DNA of 64,000 bases, from NCBI GenBank assembly GCA_963677925.2, contig CAXXYH010000003.1:2048001-2112000 (forward strand), in the 5' to 3' direction. This document shows positions 4,061 through 47,386 of the stretch, one piece after another (the first letter of the stretch is position 1; the number at the start of each line of letters is the position of its first letter). Source of the DNA: Spirochaetia bacterium (GTDB lineage: Bacteria > Spirochaetota > Spirochaetia > UBA9216). Both the position numbers and the translations under genes were made by a program. The notes beneath the pieces are model-generated. The model did no database searches and was not told the DNA's origin. It saw only the letters and a list, made by a program, of their open reading frames with translations.

Positions 4061-4148
4061 ACCAATCCCCTCAAAGCAGTGATTATATTATATCAACGGT
4101 AATAATTATAAACCCGGACTTTACTAAAGCATAGGCCGGATTTTTGTA

Positions 4149-4178
4149 TTGACATATGACAGCAACGAAAACTATACT
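4149..4178 (+). promoter_or_regulatory. Putative sigma70 promoter
   Basis: TTGACA (4149-4154), 18-nt spacer, TATACT (4173-4178), upstream of the HDOD gene. Confidence 0.6.
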
Positions 4179-4216
4179 TATTTGTGATAAATTTCTAATT
4201 ACCTGTTGGAGTTCAA

Positions 4217-5701
4217 ATGCCTAAAAAAGTAGATGCAGCCCAGATTAACCGAGCAATAGTTTCTTCAATTCCAGTCACAATCAAAAGCTATACCCTGCCC
4301 CATGAAACCGAGATGTACATGGAAGAAATACTTGGAGTATACCTTGAAAAATTCGGACAGGGAGCACTGAAAGACAGAATATCATACTGCCTCAGAGAAC
4401 TTGCCGTAAACGCTAAGAAAGCAAACACAAAGCGTGTATATTTCTCTGAAAAAAATCTGGACATCAATGACTCTGAAGATTATTCGGTAGGCATGAAAAC
4501 CTTCAAACAGGAAACACTCGACAACATAAACTACTGGCTTGAAAAGCAGAAAGATGCAGGCCTCTATATTAAAATAGTATTTCACTCAAAGGGTGATTCA
4601 TTTTCAATATCCATTAAAAACAATGCGCTGATATCCCAGAAGGAGCAGATGAGGGTCTACGATCGTATTGCACGTTCACGAGCCTTCGAGTCAATGGAAG
4701 AGGCCCTGTCCTCAGTACTCGATGATTCGGAAGGAGCAGGACTCGGTATCGTGATTCTGGTTCTGATGCTGAAAAAGATCGGTCTGGATGAGGATGCCTT
4801 TGATATCGATGTTGAAGGCGATGAAACTGTAGCAAGAATAACCATCCCCTTTGCCAACGTGCATCTTGAAAACCTCAACCAGCTTGCACAGGAAGTTGTT
4901 GATGAGATTGAAGATCTCCCGCAGTTCCCCGAGAATGTCGTTTTCATACAGAAGCTAATAAATGATCCGGAATCGGAACTTACAGATATTGCAAGACAGA
5001 TAAGCATGGACCCCTCGCTTACCGCAGACCTTCTCAAGGTCGTAAACTCAGCCCAGTTTATGCTGCCCAAAAAGGTTGATAATATAGTTGAAGCGGTCAA
5101 ACTGGTAGGTCTCCGCGGTATAAGAAACATGCTGTTTTCATACGGAACACAGAAAGTACTTAAAACAGACCAGAAGAGCCTCTGGGATCATTCATACCGG
5201 GTCGCCTTCTACTCATATAATCTTGCAAAGAACTTCAAACGAAAGAAAGACCTGCTTGATGATGCCTATGTCGGAGGAATACTTCACGACATCGGTAAAA
5301 TTATATTTTCAAGTGTTCATCCGAACCTGCTTGAGAAAATATCAAGGTTCTGCTCTGAGAAGGAATTCCAGAGCGATATCATGGAAGAGCTCTCGGCAGG
5401 ACTCAACCACGCTAAAATCGGCGGCATGATTGCTGAAAAATGGAATTTTCCCGAATCGCTCGTAGATGCAATAAAATACCATCACGAACCTAACCAGGCG
5501 CCGCGTGCCACCAACGATGTCGTCAACACGGTTTATCTTGCAAATTCGATGAGCAATCTTGAAACAGGTGAAATTACATTTGAACAGATAGACCCGCAGA
5601 TTATGTCTGAGTTCGGTATTCAGTCTGAAGATCAGCTTGTTGCAATACAGCAGCGGCTCTCAGCTGCCTTCAATGCCGACAGGGCGAACAGTCCGGACTG
5701 A
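4217..5701 (+). CDS. HDOD-domain signalling protein with N-terminal HATPase_c-like domain
   Basis: N-terminal ELAVNA (N box) and GAGLG (G box). C-terminal DPSLTADLLKVVNS, LWDHS, GILHDIGK, HAKIGGMIAEKWNFP and HH motifs of HDOD. Confidence 0.8.
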   Translation: MPKKVDAAQINRAIVSSIPVTIKSYTLPHETEMYMEEILGVYLEKFGQGALKDRISYCLRELAVNAKKANTKRVYFSEKNLDINDSEDYSVGMKTFKQETLDNINYWLEKQKDAGLYIKIVFHSKGDSFSISIKNNALISQKEQMRVYDRIARSRAFESMEEALSSVLDDSEGAGLGIVILVLMLKKIGLDEDAFDIDVEGDETVARITIPFANVHLENLNQLAQEVVDEIEDLPQFPENVVFIQKLINDPESELTDIARQISMDPSLTADLLKVVNSAQFMLPKKVDNIVEAVKLVGLRGIRNMLFSYGTQKVLKTDQKSLWDHSYRVAFYSYNLAKNFKRKKDLLDDAYVGGILHDIGKIIFSSVHPNLLEKISRFCSEKEFQSDIMEELSAGLNHAKIGGMIAEKWNFPESLVDAIKYHHEPNQAPRATNDVVNTVYLANSMSNLETGEITFEQIDPQIMSEFGIQSEDQLVAIQQRLSAAFNADRANSPD

Positions 5702-9403: not shown

Positions 9404-11170
9404 ATGAAATTCCATAAAAATGAGAACCTCTTTACGAAACCGAAGTTCTCCTTGAAATATAAATTTACAATCAACTTTGTACTGTTCGGGCTGATTGTCG
9501 GGGTTGTTTCATTCTACTTCACTGTGGCACAGTCAACAAGACAACAGCTTGAGGAGGCCAGTACACAGCTGGCTTCAAAACTGGAGCTGTACTATTCTGA
9601 GTACGACCCCGAAGATGCCCGTGAGAAGCTTAGAGAGGATCTTGATGCGATCCTCGATTCTGAATTAGTTGAACTGCCCGCCCTTCACCACTTCAATCTT
9701 TACTTTAAAAGATATACGGAGACGCATTGGCAGATTCATACTATCTACGCAGCAGATAAGGCAGACCTCGCTGGAAATCCGGTTTCTGATCAATTCCTGA
9801 ACAGAGTCCTCACTTCCGGAATGAAAATAACAGGTTTTCAGTTTTTTAAGAAAATAGATTCGGTAACCGCCTATATCAGCGCATCGGAAACAGAGCTTGA
9901 TGCAGTATTTGCCATAACGATAAAGAAAAAAGGAATACTTCATTACCTTTCAGAAAAACGCTACGATATGGTGATCTTTGGACTGAGCTTACTGATTTTT
10001 TCATACATCCTCGGTATAATTTTTTCCAGAAGAATTACAAAACCTATCTATACCCTTGCCCAGAAGGCTCTTGATTTTCATGAGGGAAACAATCGTATAA
10101 GTGTGGAATTATCAAGAAAAGATGAGATAGGCGTATTGTCCCGGATTCTGGATGAAACCTACAGGGAATCATCATCCCGCCTTCATGCCTTGGAGCTTAT
10201 GAACAGTATCGACAAAGCAGTACTCGGGGCGGTAACCATAGATGAGCTGATTCAGAGAGTTACTGAAATAATTTCAGAATTTATCCCTGGAAGCCGGGTC
10301 GCAATAGCAGTTTATGATGATGAGGATACGACATATCGGATAAAATCTGCGGCGGGTCACAGTGAAGTCAGCAGATCAGGACTGAGGTCTCCTGATACAG
10401 AAAATATTTTCGGTACAGAAGATCCCTACCGGATTCCGCTGTACATGCAGGGGAAATATTATGGCTCGCTTCTTGTTACCGGAAAAGAAGAGACGGGTTT
10501 ATCTGATGAAGAAAAGCTGACTTTAAAAAAACTGGGTGATCAGGCTGCTGTTGCGCTTCAGAGAGTTATAGAAATTGAAGAAAGAAACCAGATGCAGATG
10601 GGATCGATAATGGCGCTTTCCCGGGCAATTGATGCAAAATCAAAATGGACTGCAGGACACAGCGAAAGAGTCGCAAAATTAAGCGAGCAGCTGGCGAAAA
10701 AGCTTAATTTCGATGAATCAATGCTTGAGCGGCTGATTATCTCAGCACTGCTGCATGACATAGGAAAGATCGGAGTTCCCGAGGAGATACTGGATAAACC
10801 TTCAAAACTTGATGCTGATGAGTTCCGACAGATAAAAAAACATTCAGAGATCGGATACAGCATTACCGGAAGCATTCCCCATTTTTCAGACATTTGCGAG
10901 GGAGTAAAATATCATCATGAAAGATGGAACGGCAGCGGTTATCCAGATGGTCTTAAAAACATAAATATTCCCGTTTTTGCACGAATTATAGCACTGGCAG
11001 ATGTATTTGATGCGCTTACCTCCGAACGTCCGTACCGCAGCAACATGACTATGGAAGAAGCGCTTGTTTTTATTCAGGAACGCAGGGGAAAAGATTTTGA
11101 TCCGATGCTAAGTGATAAATTCATCCAAATGATTAAAAACACATTTGCAATATCCGCCGCTCAGCAGTAA
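9404..11170 (+). CDS. Membrane HAMP/GAF/HD-GYP cyclic-di-nucleotide phosphodiesterase
   Basis: Two TM helices, HAMP (KDEIGVLS), GAF-like segment, GHSERV, LLHDIGKIG, HHERWNGSGYPDGL and ADVFDALTSERPYR. Confidence 0.9.
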   Translation: MKFHKNENLFTKPKFSLKYKFTINFVLFGLIVGVVSFYFTVAQSTRQQLEEASTQLASKLELYYSEYDPEDAREKLREDLDAILDSELVELPALHHFNLYFKRYTETHWQIHTIYAADKADLAGNPVSDQFLNRVLTSGMKITGFQFFKKIDSVTAYISASETELDAVFAITIKKKGILHYLSEKRYDMVIFGLSLLIFSYILGIIFSRRITKPIYTLAQKALDFHEGNNRISVELSRKDEIGVLSRILDETYRESSSRLHALELMNSIDKAVLGAVTIDELIQRVTEIISEFIPGSRVAIAVYDDEDTTYRIKSAAGHSEVSRSGLRSPDTENIFGTEDPYRIPLYMQGKYYGSLLVTGKEETGLSDEEKLTLKKLGDQAAVALQRVIEIEERNQMQMGSIMALSRAIDAKSKWTAGHSERVAKLSEQLAKKLNFDESMLERLIISALLHDIGKIGVPEEILDKPSKLDADEFRQIKKHSEIGYSITGSIPHFSDICEGVKYHHERWNGSGYPDGLKNINIPVFARIIALADVFDALTSERPYRSNMTMEEALVFIQERRGKDFDPMLSDKFIQMIKNTFAISAAQQ

Positions 11171-44552: not shown

Positions 44553-44945
44553 TTACATAAAAACCGAGGGACGAACATTATACTTTTTAGCGAGACGTTT
44601 AATCTGACCGAGGTTTAAAATCCGCTTCCCACTAAGAATTTCACTTATCACAGATTTAGGAGCAATATCCTTTAGATCAATCTGTTTATGATTATGCTCC
44701 TTCATGAGATACTTTAACGCTTCAAGACCAGAGACATTCGTTTTTTCAATAGAAGATTCATACCGCTCCAGCTGGAAATAAATAAAATCATAAAGTCCCT
44801 GAAGTTCAGGATTTCCACTGTTTATCTCTTTTCGAAGAGAGTAAAGATATTCTTCCATTTTTATAGCTTCTTCTTCATCACTAACTGTGAATTGATCAAA
44901 CAAAGCAGCTATTTTAAGTAATTCGGTTGAAGAATTATGCATCAT
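44553..44945 (-). CDS. higA: HigA-type antitoxin (HTH)
   Basis: LKYLMKEHNHKQIDL...SVISEILSGKR.LN..QIKRLA Xre HTH, downstream of the toxin. Confidence 0.85.
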   Translation of the reverse strand: MMHNSSTELLKIAALFDQFTVSDEEEAIKMEEYLYSLRKEINSGNPELQGLYDFIYFQLERYESSIEKTNVSGLEALKYLMKEHNHKQIDLKDIAPKSVISEILSGKRILNLGQIKRLAKKYNVRPSVFM

Positions 44946-44971: not shown

Positions 44972-45259
44972 TCAGTATTTCTTATCGTAATCAGCATGAG
45001 TTAGAAAATCTATGATATAAACTTCCTGAGAATCATAGAATATATGGGTAATGAGTCTATAAGAATTACCTTTTATATTAAAACAAGTATACATTCTCTC
45101 CACTCCAACAGCATCTGCAGTAGGAAAGGTTTTTCTCAAGTCAACAATATGACCCGCTTCACAGCCTTCCACTATTTTAATCCAGCGCTGAAGTGATTTT
45201 TCAACATCCGGATATTGTCTTGAAATCTGTCTTAACTTTGCAACTGTTATTACTTTCAA
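44972..45259 (-). CDS. higB: HigB-type mRNA interferase toxin
   Basis: MKVI...W...LRKTFPTAD...FNIKGNSYRLI...THADYDK signature. Confidence 0.9.
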   Translation of the reverse strand: MKVITVAKLRQISRQYPDVEKSLQRWIKIVEGCEAGHIVDLRKTFPTADAVGVERMYTCFNIKGNSYRLITHIFYDSQEVYIIDFLTHADYDKKY

Positions 45260-45293
45260 AAATTGAATTACTCCTTATAAGGGAGTAACACAC

Positions 45294-45324
45294 TAAAGTT
45301 AGCAATTTGCGAACTTTATGTCAA
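45294..45324 (-). promoter_or_regulatory. higBA promoter with overlapping operator palindrome
   Basis: Minus strand TTGACA-N17-TAACTT. The inverted repeat TAAAGTTaGCAA-T-TTGCgAACTTTA (45294-45318) spans the spacer and the -10 element. Confidence 0.75.
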
Positions 45325-45423
45325 GAAATATTATAAATATGAATACTCCACTACACAAGATTTAAACCACAATTATTCTAATAGAATTCAACCATCATAC
45401 AGAATTATTGGATTCACCGGCTT

Positions 45424-45786
45424 CTAAACAACCAGGCGCTGCCATTCAAGCTGCAAGCCCTGAAAATTAAGCAGGTAACCCACACGGCAGCCGCTAATAT
45501 GCAGATAGTTAATTAACTGTGCCTTGTGGCCGTCATTAATTGCCTTTACTGATTTTAATTCAAGAATAACAGAATTATTTACAACAAGGTCTGCAAAATA
45601 CTCACCAACAGTATTACCCTTATATTTTACATTGAACGGCTGATTATAAACGACATTCACCCCTGCTTCCTTGAGCTCATAAAACAATGCATTGTGATAA
45701 CACTGCTCAAGCAGCCCAGGCCCCATGCCCTTGTGAACTGCCATACAGCAGCCGATAATTTGATAACTTAATTCTTTGTACAGCAT
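45424..45786 (-). CDS. GxxExxY protein (PD-(D/E)XK nuclease-like family)
   Basis: MGPGLLEQCY, YFADLVV, ILELKSV, HKAQLINYL and GYLLNF motifs; SD GGAGG 7 nt before ATG 45786. Confidence 0.9.
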   Translation of the reverse strand: MLYKELSYQIIGCCMAVHKGMGPGLLEQCYHNALFYELKEAGVNVVYNQPFNVKYKGNTVGEYFADLVVNNSVILELKSVKAINDGHKAQLINYLHISGCRVGYLLNFQGLQLEWQRLVV

Positions 45787-45792
45787 TTGCAT

Positions 45793-45918
45793 ACCTCCTG
45801 AAATTTTCAGGCACACCACAGGCCCGCTTTACAGGAACTCAAGGGAACGGCAAAGCCGTTTTCACCCTGCCCTTGAATTCCTGTAAACGGGATGTACAAT
45901 GAAAAACCTGAAGGAGGT
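45793..45918. promoter_or_regulatory. Long branched inverted repeat, candidate single-stranded-DNA (Frpo/ssi-like) promoter
   Basis: Stems ACCTCCT/AGGAGGT, TTTTCA/TGAAAA, CCCG/CGGG, TTTACAGGAA/TTCCTGTAAA, TCAAGGG/CCCTTGA and apical AACGGC/GCCGTT. The right arm carries TTGAAT-N16-TACAAT. Confidence 0.65.
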
Positions 45919-45956
45919 CCTCCCTACTTCCACCTTCTTACTTCCACAAATCACCG

Positions 45957-46020
45957 CCCTAACCTGCCCCATACAAGTTCGCTGCTGTGCGTATACCCGA
46001 TACCAGTCCGTGGCCAAGAC
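45957..46020 (-). repeat. Diverged ~55-bp repeat, right copy
   Basis: ccctaa...ccatacaagttcgctgctgtgcgtatacccgataccagtccgtggccaaga, inverted relative to 32361-32420. Confidence 0.55.
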
Positions 46021-46050
46021 CTAACCTGGCGGCCGAACAAATTTCTTTAA

Positions 46051-46079
46051 TTGACAATCCTTTCGCAGGGGCCTATATT
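46051..46079 (+). promoter_or_regulatory. sigma70 promoter of the patatin gene
   Basis: TTGACA-N17-TATATT. Confidence 0.7.
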
Positions 46080-46096
46080 TTTGTAAAAGGCGGCCT

Positions 46097-47386
46097 ATGT
46101 TTGATAAAAAATCTGAATACAGTTTAGTCCTTGCCGGCGGCGGCGCGAGAGGGGCATATGAAATTGGAGCATGGAAGGCTCTTAAGGAACTCAAAATTGA
46201 AGTAAACGCGGTGGCGGGAACCTCAGTCGGTGCGCTAAACGCGGCTGTCATTGCCCAGGATGAATATGAGCTGGGAATAAAACTGTGGACAGAGATGACC
46301 CTGGACAGGATTATCAGAGTTCCTGAAGGAATGCTTAAAAACGGCAAAATCAAATTCTCGTTCAAAGCATTCAACAGAATCTCAGACCTCAATCTGGATA
46401 TCCGCAACCTCGGGCTTGATACGGCACCGCTTTACAGGATGCTTAAAGAATATATCAGGGAGGACGACATCAGAAAATCAGGCAGAGACCTCGGCATAGT
46501 CACAGTTGAAGTTAACAGCCTTTCTTCAAGAGAGATATTTCTCGATGCCATGGAGCCGGGAACCCTGCCCGACTACCTGCTTGCAAGCGCATCAATTCCA
46601 GCGGTTTTCAAAAATGCTGAGATTAATGGAAAGAAATATGCAGACGGCGGCATCTGGGACAACATACCGCACCGGATGATGAAGCACCGCGGGTATAAAA
46701 AAATTATTGTAGTGGACATCTCCGGCCTCGGAGTAAACCGTCGGCCCGATGTAGCGGGTACCGATACAATTTACATCAAAAACTCCATAGACCTGGGGGG
46801 AATACTGGACTTCGATCCCAACTCAGCTGAAAGAAATATAAACATCGGCTACCTGGATACCCTCAAAGTTTTTGACAAAGTTAAAGGCATAAACTATTTC
46901 TTCAAACCCGATCGTCACCTTGAGGAAAATCTTACCAGAAAACTGTTCGAGATGGATAACGTACAGAAATACTCGCACCTGCTGGAATATGAAACAAAAA
47001 AAATCAGTGAAAAAAACATCGAAACACTTATCCGTAATACACTTCCAACAGAGCAGAAATTTCATAAAGATCTAATCTACTGCCTTATTGATGCGGCTGC
47101 GGCATCGCTTGATATAGAACGGAACAGGCTGTATACATTCAGGGAACTTATTGAGACTATTAAAGATAAATATGCCGAAATAAAACAGAGCGTAAGCAAG
47201 CCAACCGACGGGGAATCGGAATCGTTTTTTACAAAGATCGGTGATGCAATAAGCCTTTTTATTACAGAGAGAGAGAAGGAAAAGTTCACACCCTACGAAT
47301 ACGCCCTGGTTCTGAATAATTTCAAAACTCCGGGAAACCTTTTTCCGGAATACATACCGGCGGAGATATTTCTTTCGTTGATATAG
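46097..47386 (+). CDS. Patatin-like phospholipase
   Basis: GGGARG, GTSVG nucleophile, ASASIP and DGG motifs. Confidence 0.9.
   Translation: MFDKKSEYSLVLAGGGARGAYEIGAWKALKELKIEVNAVAGTSVGALNAAVIAQDEYELGIKLWTEMTLDRIIRVPEGMLKNGKIKFSFKAFNRISDLNLDIRNLGLDTAPLYRMLKEYIREDDIRKSGRDLGIVTVEVNSLSSREIFLDAMEPGTLPDYLLASASIPAVFKNAEINGKKYADGGIWDNIPHRMMKHRGYKKIIVVDISGLGVNRRPDVAGTDTIYIKNSIDLGGILDFDPNSAERNINIGYLDTLKVFDKVKGINYFFKPDRHLEENLTRKLFEMDNVQKYSHLLEYETKKISEKNIETLIRNTLPTEQKFHKDLIYCLIDAAAASLDIERNRLYTFRELIETIKDKYAEIKQSVSKPTDGESESFFTKIGDAISLFITEREKEKFTPYEYALVLNNFKTPGNLFPEYIPAEIFLSLI

Follow-up and report, generated by a model that had tools for sequence, protein, structure and literature searches.

A single-stranded DNA (ssDNA) promoter, Frpo/ssi, was reportedly described by Masai and Arai in 1997, and the Frpo region of the F plasmid is said to measure ~330 nt. 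Three reports describe how the transferred strand forms stem-loops in which -35 and -10 boxes are rebuilt; these are active before the DNA becomes duplex, have mapped start sites and fall into three classes in IncI1 and IncF plasmids (PMC9849209, PMC11541004, PMC12672017). In these reports, experimental proof covers only the F and IncI1 plasmids, and such promoters are predicted in other conjugative elements (PMC9849209, PMC12672017, PMC11541004). Here, we report on a 126-nt imperfect palindrome in front of a GxxExxY gene of a Spirochaetia bacterium, which we read, at a probability of roughly 0.55, as an Frpo-like promoter that would work as a single strand or as an extruded hairpin, and as one of a conserved family that mimics the open promoter complex. 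The stretch analysed (the window, 64,000 nt) is part of a 2.2-Mb chromosomal contig in a 5.04-Mb genome (99.6% complete), and metabolic genes surround the locus.

Like the IncF and IncI1 promoters, the element is a template-strand stem-loop that rebuilds -35 and -10 boxes; it would read into its gene only when folded and is expected to be inactive as duplex. It differs from them in being chromosomal and outside any leading region, in coming from Spirochaetia and Saccharibacteria, in having the Shine-Dalgarno (SD) sequence of the GxxExxY gene built into its stem and in its length of ~126 nt. Moreover, PF03432 (relaxase) and PF02534 (coupling protein), the two families searched, have no match in its own genome. 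When compared to 72,556 plasmid records including F (blastn, word 11), the element gave no match at E 0.01. We also folded the whole intergenic regions of Frpo1 and Frpo2 of the F plasmid (486 and 541 nt), in which a simple hexamer search found no canonical pair. The element thus has the structural features of Frpo/ssi promoters and lacks both homology to them and a leading-region location; it is a kindred variant and not a member of the Frpo family.

Host RNA polymerase recognises promoter-like ssDNA hairpins in two other settings, namely at single-strand origins, on rolling-circle plasmids, and at the minus-strand origin in filamentous phage. Unlike the present element, those origins yield a short primer for DNA synthesis and have no gene with an SD behind them, and no replication initiator gene was seen here. 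In phage N4, hairpins extruded from supercoiled DNA serve as promoters, but these are read by the phage polymerase and lack -35 and -10 boxes. Sigma70 holoenzyme binds best to DNA whose duplex stops at -12 and whose non-template strand is single-stranded from -11 onward. Fork-junction and pre-melted templates share the duplex end at -12 with our element, but are laboratory constructs. We found no published report of such promoters in Spirochaetes, in Saccharibacteria or for GxxExxY genes, although supplementary tables (e.g. the Frpo candidate lists of PMC11541004) might hold related elements. In the one GxxExxY paper examined, the name is no more than a domain label, and no literature was found on DUF3768, the family of the second gene type dealt with below.

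A hairpin with promoter letters on its far arm

The GxxExxY gene lies on the minus strand (45424-45786 from its second ATG, 120 aa; 45424-45792 from its first, 122 aa). Its product matches PF13366 (PDDEXK_3; E 8e-40, 136.3 bits, cut-off 22) and TIGR04256 (142.2 bits, cut-off 35), which agrees with the PD-(D/E)XK-like GxxExxY identity given in a preliminary description of this DNA. That description had placed the start codon directly after the SD, where an ATG stands at 45790-45792. Instead, the second ATG, at 45784-45786, is probably the true start, because it lies 7 nt from the SD and the same choice is made in the homologues.

The palindrome occupies 45793-45918. Its plus strand, which is the template strand of the gene and the proposed folding strand, folds as DNA (45785-45925) at -33.4 kcal/mol, in comparison to -14.9 +/- 2.8 kcal/mol for 200 shuffles (z -6.5; 0/200 as good), and a covariance model of the hairpin family (R1, see below) scores it at 122 bits. 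The ~126-nt hairpin of the preliminary description is therefore borne out, and its motif coordinates stand. The core inverted repeat pairs 45828-45850 with 45865-45887 (23 nt, 87% complementary), and an apical mini-hairpin, AACGGC-AAA-GCCGTT (45846-45860), forms the tip of the palindrome. By sequence, the hairpin has no second copy in its own genome, which ruled out a repeat element.

On the plus strand, the distal arm carries a sigma70-type -35 hexamer, TTGAAT (45873-45878), and a -10 hexamer, TACAAT (45895-45900). A promoter scan recovered this TTGAAT-16-TACAAT pair, which points away from the gene, as had been described. In the predicted DNA fold, the -35 hexamer pairs with the proximal arm; in the -10 hexamer, T(-12) has a partner and -11 to -8 are single-stranded. 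The partner of the distal -35 in the proximal arm reads TTGAGT in the direction of the gene (minus strand, 45837-45842), with no -10 after it. At the base of the stem, AGGAGGT on the plus strand (45912-45918) is the anti-SD in the sense strand and pairs with 45793-45799 (plus-strand ACCTCCT), where the minus strand holds AGGAGGT, the SD of the GxxExxY gene; this duplex lies downstream of the predicted start site. Taken alone, the promoter scan is near chance for the region, with 8 sites found compared to 5.4 +/- 2.1 expected. The observation rises above chance because the layout is conserved, with other stem letters, before a paralogue and in 39 distinct copies.

We propose that the plus strand folds on itself, either as ssDNA or when extruded from supercoiled DNA. 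Folding would place -36 to -12 in a duplex with the near arm and leave -11 to about -8 open, and a short downstream duplex would re-form between the anti-SD and the SD. RNA polymerase at the sigma70-type -35 and -10 of the far arm would then transcribe the near arm and continue into the GxxExxY gene. Base by base, the far arm takes the place of the non-template strand in this geometry, and the near arm is read from ~45810 down to 45793, into the gene. Since the near arm is copied into the gene, the product would be the gene's own messenger RNA (mRNA), with a short leader of ~15-25 nt and a free SD; the model puts its start just upstream of the SD, at about 45800-45810. In ordinary duplex DNA, by comparison, the hexamers are directed away from the gene and the near-arm TTGAGT has no -10 behind it, so that GxxExxY would be poorly expressed, and in a read-through RNA the SD would be locked in the hairpin.

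The main rival explanation places the structure in the RNA. Folded as RNA, the sense strand (minus) reaches -63.2 kcal/mol (z -6.0); its SD pairs with the anti-SD in this fold, and CTTCGG stands at several hairpin tips of the family. A transcript started upstream might thus fold into a structured 5' leader that hides the SD in its outer stem and is opened or cut for translation, e.g. by RNase III, as in the intervening sequences of ribosomal RNA; the promoter-like letters would then be signals for RNA binding or cleavage. We consider such a leader unlikely. The promoter scan found no promoter-like site in the gene direction (minus strand) in 45919-46100, ~180 bp above the hairpin, and a known RNA family was ruled out, as no match to Rfam 15 reached its gathering score (the best, to a microRNA model, had 29.9 bits compared to 78). 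The alignments described in the next section bear on this question further.

We also observed an 11-nt inverted repeat (45772-45782 and 45893-45903) through which the -10 region (TGTACAATGAA) can pair with codons 2-4 of the gene (TTCTTTGTACA). It alters the predicted fold in wider folding windows and may be chance.

Covariation and the end of the duplex

The genome holds five PF13366 loci. Upstream of the paralogue at C4:384901, a palindrome repeats the layout with different stem letters and the same anti-SD/SD outer stem, and carries TTTACA-N16-TAAAAT on the strand opposite to the gene. GxxExxY homologues are present in 15 of 41 related genomes, and the element was seen in most of their upstream regions. 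With R1 we found 3 sites in the element's own genome, all before PF13366 loci; the further copies that the preliminary description had proposed to look for thus exist. Across the class Spirochaetia, R1 matched in 20/151 genomes and 14/88 genera, and in a phylum-wide sample it matched in 0/150 other genomes. Over the stored loci it gave 55 matches, 41 of them distinct, and 39 of these are in gene orientation. The folded promoter has the same orientation into the downstream gene in all 39 distinct copies, and a GxxExxY open reading frame (ORF) follows directly in 33. The remaining six are L042 and L060, before PF13366 matches, L086, before a gene fragment, L074, before a different small ORF, and L072 and L077.

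Pairing across the family was assessed in two alignments: A1, a MAFFT alignment of 18 sequences that was not fitted to the model, and A2, which was fitted to it. In A2, 79.4% of stem cells are paired, compared to 63.0% after shuffling (0/500 shuffles reach the observed value) and 39-49% with slid partners; as A2 leans to the structure and the sequences are related, such shuffle tests overstate significance and count as support, not as probabilities. A1, scored on a 33-pair structure, gave 77.4%, compared to 64.7% (0/500) and 37-51%. Both sides change in 20/26 inner pairs in A2 and in 18/26 in A1. Between the two species of the genus, a far-arm C-to-A change in the stem just after the -10 is matched by a near-arm G-to-T change.

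Certain letters do not vary. In A1, these are the TGA within the proximal TTGAC and, in the distal arm, A..TA, which corresponds on the other strand to T-12, A-11 and T-7. TAnnnT is present on the far arm in 35/39 distinct copies; three of the others are unparsed owing to large indels and one reads CATAAT. Between TTGAxx or TTTACx and the far-arm -10, 26 copies have a 16-nt spacer and 10 copies a 15-nt spacer. In the direction of the gene, TAnnnT stands 15-19 nt after the near-arm TTGAC in only 1/39 copies. Both the covariation and the distal-arm boxes that the preliminary description wanted checked among homologues are thus found, and its proximal arm without a usable -10 holds for the family.

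These boxes could also be read as an ordinary duplex promoter that fires away from the GxxExxY gene. Its product, an upstream or antisense RNA, would cross the word-motif region (see below) and here also lead towards a patatin gene, with the palindrome as operator or by-product. The hexamers are good and conserved on that strand, and their direction matches the patatin gene, which is 200 bp away at the present locus. Nevertheless, we find this improbable. The sequence downstream in that direction is unconserved and holds no common ORF, and at other loci the transcript would be antisense to an unrelated gene, entering it at its 3' end. A 15-nt spacer is poor for duplex promoters, yet it occurs in 10/36 parsed Spirochaetia copies and in 10/10 of the Saccharibacteria copies described below. 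Finally, an outward promoter gives no account of the covariation of the spacer with the second arm, or of the fixed distance to the SD and ATG.

The same alignments speak to the leader RNA. Covariation fits an RNA equally well as DNA, and the outer stem has U.G pairs in its sense strand. A leader RNA leaves unexplained, however, why T-12, A-11 and T-7 are invariant at a fixed spacing of 15-16 nt from the TTGAC of the other strand. On their functional strand, structured RNAs usually have a large surplus of G.U over A.C cells. No such strand bias is present in the inner helix (G.T in 28 cells, A.C in 33), and the sense strand has no advantage in stability, being the more stable one in 18/39 copies with RNA parameters; with DNA parameters, the template strand is more stable in 29/39.

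We folded the template strand of n = 35 Spirochaetia copies with DNA parameters and averaged the pairing probability by promoter position. Mean pairing is 0.70-0.96 from -36 to -12, drops to 0.28 at -11 and is 0.33-0.35 to -8; it is ~0.5-0.6 to +2 and reaches 0.72-0.78 at +4 to +8. In its predicted fold, the template strand thus mimics an open promoter complex, with duplex to -12, an opening from -11 and duplex downstream. This is the arrangement of the preliminary description, in which the -35 and spacer are paired and the -10 lies opposite a bubble.

Recurrence before DUF3768 and other genes

A motif pattern drawn from the hairpin family was run over 185,579 species genomes. It gave 28 matches, comprising 8 in Spirochaetes (Marispirochaeta among them), all before GxxExxY ORFs, 11 of a Saccharibacteria type and 9 others. 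The Saccharibacteria-type loci (L089-L091, L096, L099, L101-L103, L106, L114 and L115; 10 are distinct, and one was binned as Gammaproteobacteria) stand before genes of the DUF3768 family (PF12599, E 4e-22). Their arm letters differ between copies, yet are complementary. On the opposite strand, the promoter reads TTGATG-15-TATAAT in 7/10 distinct copies and the rest have TTGACT or TACAAT, with a spacer of 15 nt. Predicted pairing is 0.8-1.0 at most positions down to -12 (with dips at -37 and -28), 0.02 at -11 and at most 0.39 to -2, and returns to 0.6-0.87 at most positions from -1 to +18 (with a dip to 0.34 at +7), a profile even cleaner than that of the Spirochaetia. In this clade the SD lies outside the stem, beyond it. 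Therefore, it is the promoter geometry and not the masking of the SD that is common to both clades, a further point against the leader RNA.

The idea, put forward in the preliminary description, of a promoter formed only by the folded template strand has thus gained conserved far-arm boxes, covariation, a duplex end between -12 and -11 and the recurrence before DUF3768 genes. The part of the idea that concerns activity on ssDNA, including use by RNA polymerase and silence as duplex, is what we infer from these features.

At one of the Saccharibacteria-type loci (L103), the DUF3768 gene is part of an integrative element that holds a weak Replic_Relax match, and is adjoined by a large serine recombinase and ArsR / heavy-metal ATPase cargo. 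Homologues of DUF3768 occur on 442 plasmid records, 227 of them typed conjugative, and on one of these records the gene is near ssb, parAB and MobC/relaxase genes. The region upstream of an alphaproteobacterial plasmid DUF3768 gene folds strongly, and no promoter boxes are readable there.

Three of the 9 other pattern matches (L092, L095 and L110) are canonical promoters in the gene direction, with a palindromic -35 and a -10 placed 17 nt after the near TTGAC, and thus contrast with the family. In viral contigs, the pattern had 0 matches. A generic scan of the element's own genome for open-complex-mimic hairpins found 4 sites, compared to 1-3 in a reversed-sequence control, and only the two intact GxxExxY elements stood out; the genome therefore has no hidden large class of such hairpins.

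In two genomes, the gene behind the element belongs to a third family, a small ORF with no match in Pfam. We observed a looser copy in the element's own genome, at C3:65075-65193 (G000; L117, ~10075-10193), with TTTACC-16-TACAAT on the opposite strand. The ORF that follows this copy has 133 aa and no Pfam match, and the gene just before the copy encodes an AEP-TOTE primase-helicase. The island around them also contains an integrase, a NACHT/AAA ATPase and a type I R-like helicase. A homologue of the 133-aa ORF follows an R1 match in another genome (L074).

Genomic setting, mobility and possible triggers

Several copies of the gene occur per genome, broken ones included. The cassette is next to patatin in both species of genus g1, and the locus is stable between them; at the patatin orthologue in genus g4 there is no adjacent cassette in the 5 loci with enough upstream sequence (6 orthologues in all). 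Two element copies with the same score stand 1.3 kb apart on one contig (G104:C333:940-1080 and 2227-2367), and L043 (G009:C427, 1861-1957) is a natural allele without the far arm and loop. These features would suit a DNA hairpin that moves or maintains the GxxExxY cassette, as a folded site on which a recombinase, or the nuclease itself, would act, comparable to attC or the ends of IS200/IS605, with the promoter secondary. Although compatible with the hairpin promoter that we prefer, this seems very improbable to us. The element precedes unrelated genes too, its conserved letters are promoter letters, and it stands on one side of the gene only: in 45200-46150 no inverted repeat brackets the GxxExxY gene beyond 10-nt pairs of chance size, and the word motif is on the upstream side only.

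A second pair of element copies, near-identical and 3 kb apart, is found at G133:C62:1054-1194 and 4137-4277; the pairs on the G104 and G133 contigs suggest recent duplication of the cassette. In L043, the anti-SD and a T-run are joined to the near-arm TTGACA; the allele looks like a palindrome-mediated deletion, and its gene is intact. In G009 (g4), a GxxExxY gene lies ~2 kb off, on the other side of the patatin orthologue. In L119 and L120 (G007:C1:9.7-29 kb), the genes of a type I restriction-modification system (hsdR, hsdS and hsdM) alternate with three GxxExxY copies that carry the hairpin and with one fragment, and one of the copies is directly before hsdM. At the paralogues at G000:C3:1535630-1535760 and C3:1215904-1216000 (L054 and L060; also L057), three small perfect hairpins, e.g. 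AATCTTTTGTC..GACAAAAGATT and TGACAGTTTTC..GAAAACTGTCA, separate the gene from the promoter hairpin or from the site where it would stand. Cumulative GC skew turns at ~C4:390 kb (viewed at G000:C4 ~380-400 kb), a likely replication origin, and the intact GxxExxY paralogue with its hairpin (C4:384901-385410) is at this switch within the 20-kb resolution.

With regard to the protein, each of the core residues E29, D68, K80 and Q92 is shared by at least 24 of 26 homologues, and position 78 is E in the present protein (ILELK) and <90% conserved among homologues. The residues of a PD-(D/E)XK core are thus present, and nuclease activity is predicted.

Downstream of the GxxExxY gene and co-oriented with it on the minus strand are genes for HigB (44972-45259) and a helix-turn-helix (HTH) antitoxin (44553-44945), which the preliminary description had joined with it into a leading-region-like module. 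This found no support. The higBA pair has a promoter-like site of its own, TTGACA-N17-TAACTT, between 45260 and 45423, and a 12-nt palindrome, TAAAGTTAGCAA / TTGCGAACTTTA (45294-45318), typical of an autoregulated toxin-antitoxin operator. It is also absent from the same locus in the sister species, which does share the GxxExxY cassette, and higBA was ruled out as part of the hairpin-GxxExxY unit on these grounds. A conjugative leading region was rejected in view of the chromosomal contig together with the absence of PF03432 and PF02534 matches, other relaxase families not having been searched; the relaxase genes that the preliminary description suggested looking for were thus not found in the form of PF03432.

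On the other side, the divergent patatin gene (46097-47386, plus strand) begins ~200 bp from the hairpin. Between the hairpin and the patatin promoter we observed a pyrimidine-rich direct repeat, CCTCCCTACTTCCA / CCTTCTTACTTCCA (45919-45946), and two CCTAACCTG motifs (45957-45967 and 46018-46029). A CACGGA-type word motif, GGCCACGGA / TCCGTGGCC, lies upstream of the hairpin on the minus strand (46007-46015) and recurs near homologous genes in relatives. There, GGCCACGGAT-type words are found upstream of the gene and at times downstream in direct orientation (L045, L046 and L055).

Several observations weigh against the hairpin promoter, in addition to the caution on the shuffle tests given above. 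The locus, a chromosomal one, is stable across two species of the genus and has neither a relaxase nor a coupling-protein match of the two families searched, so that the moment at which its plus strand would be single-stranded is uncertain. There is no bias in replication orientation: 17/26 copies are co-directional by local GC skew, which is about the usual gene bias, and replication-coupled exposure of the template strand was ruled out as a specific trigger for this reason. Conservation is higher in the near-arm TTGAC than in the far-arm -35 (TTTAC in 11/36 parsed copies), which would not be expected from a simple hairpin model. Some 20% of stem cells lack a partner and the tip is bulged, which would make cruciform extrusion from duplex DNA harder. 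Finally, the many T.G pairs in the sense strand of the outer stem are A.C mismatches in the template strand; they favour an additional role at the RNA level, in masking the SD of read-through transcripts.

As to the natural trigger, DNA uptake or transfer, repair gaps and cruciform extrusion are guesses that we can offer.

More tentatively, open-complex-mimic hairpin promoters may be a widespread bacterial device, although we hold this wider reading to be rather doubtful. In Spirochaetia, such a device would express a selfish PD-(D/E)XK nuclease cassette when its DNA is single-stranded, e.g. on uptake by transformation (ComEC is present in the element's own genome) or at repair gaps, which would limit production of the nuclease to its entry into a new cell or to times of DNA stress. 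In Saccharibacteria, it would serve DUF3768 as an establishment gene of integrative elements. In a bolder variant of this reading, the outward-firing duplex promoter would build up negative supercoils behind itself, and these would extrude the palindrome and flip the promoter inward.

If the hairpin promoter is real, a conserved and covarying family with a duplex ending at -12, found in two distant phyla and partly chromosomal, would widen the known range of the mechanism. It would also provide a sequence signature by which such promoters could be found without homology. For the very common and uncharacterised GxxExxY genes, it would be a first functional handle, suggesting that their products may act on ssDNA or at the time when DNA is single-stranded.

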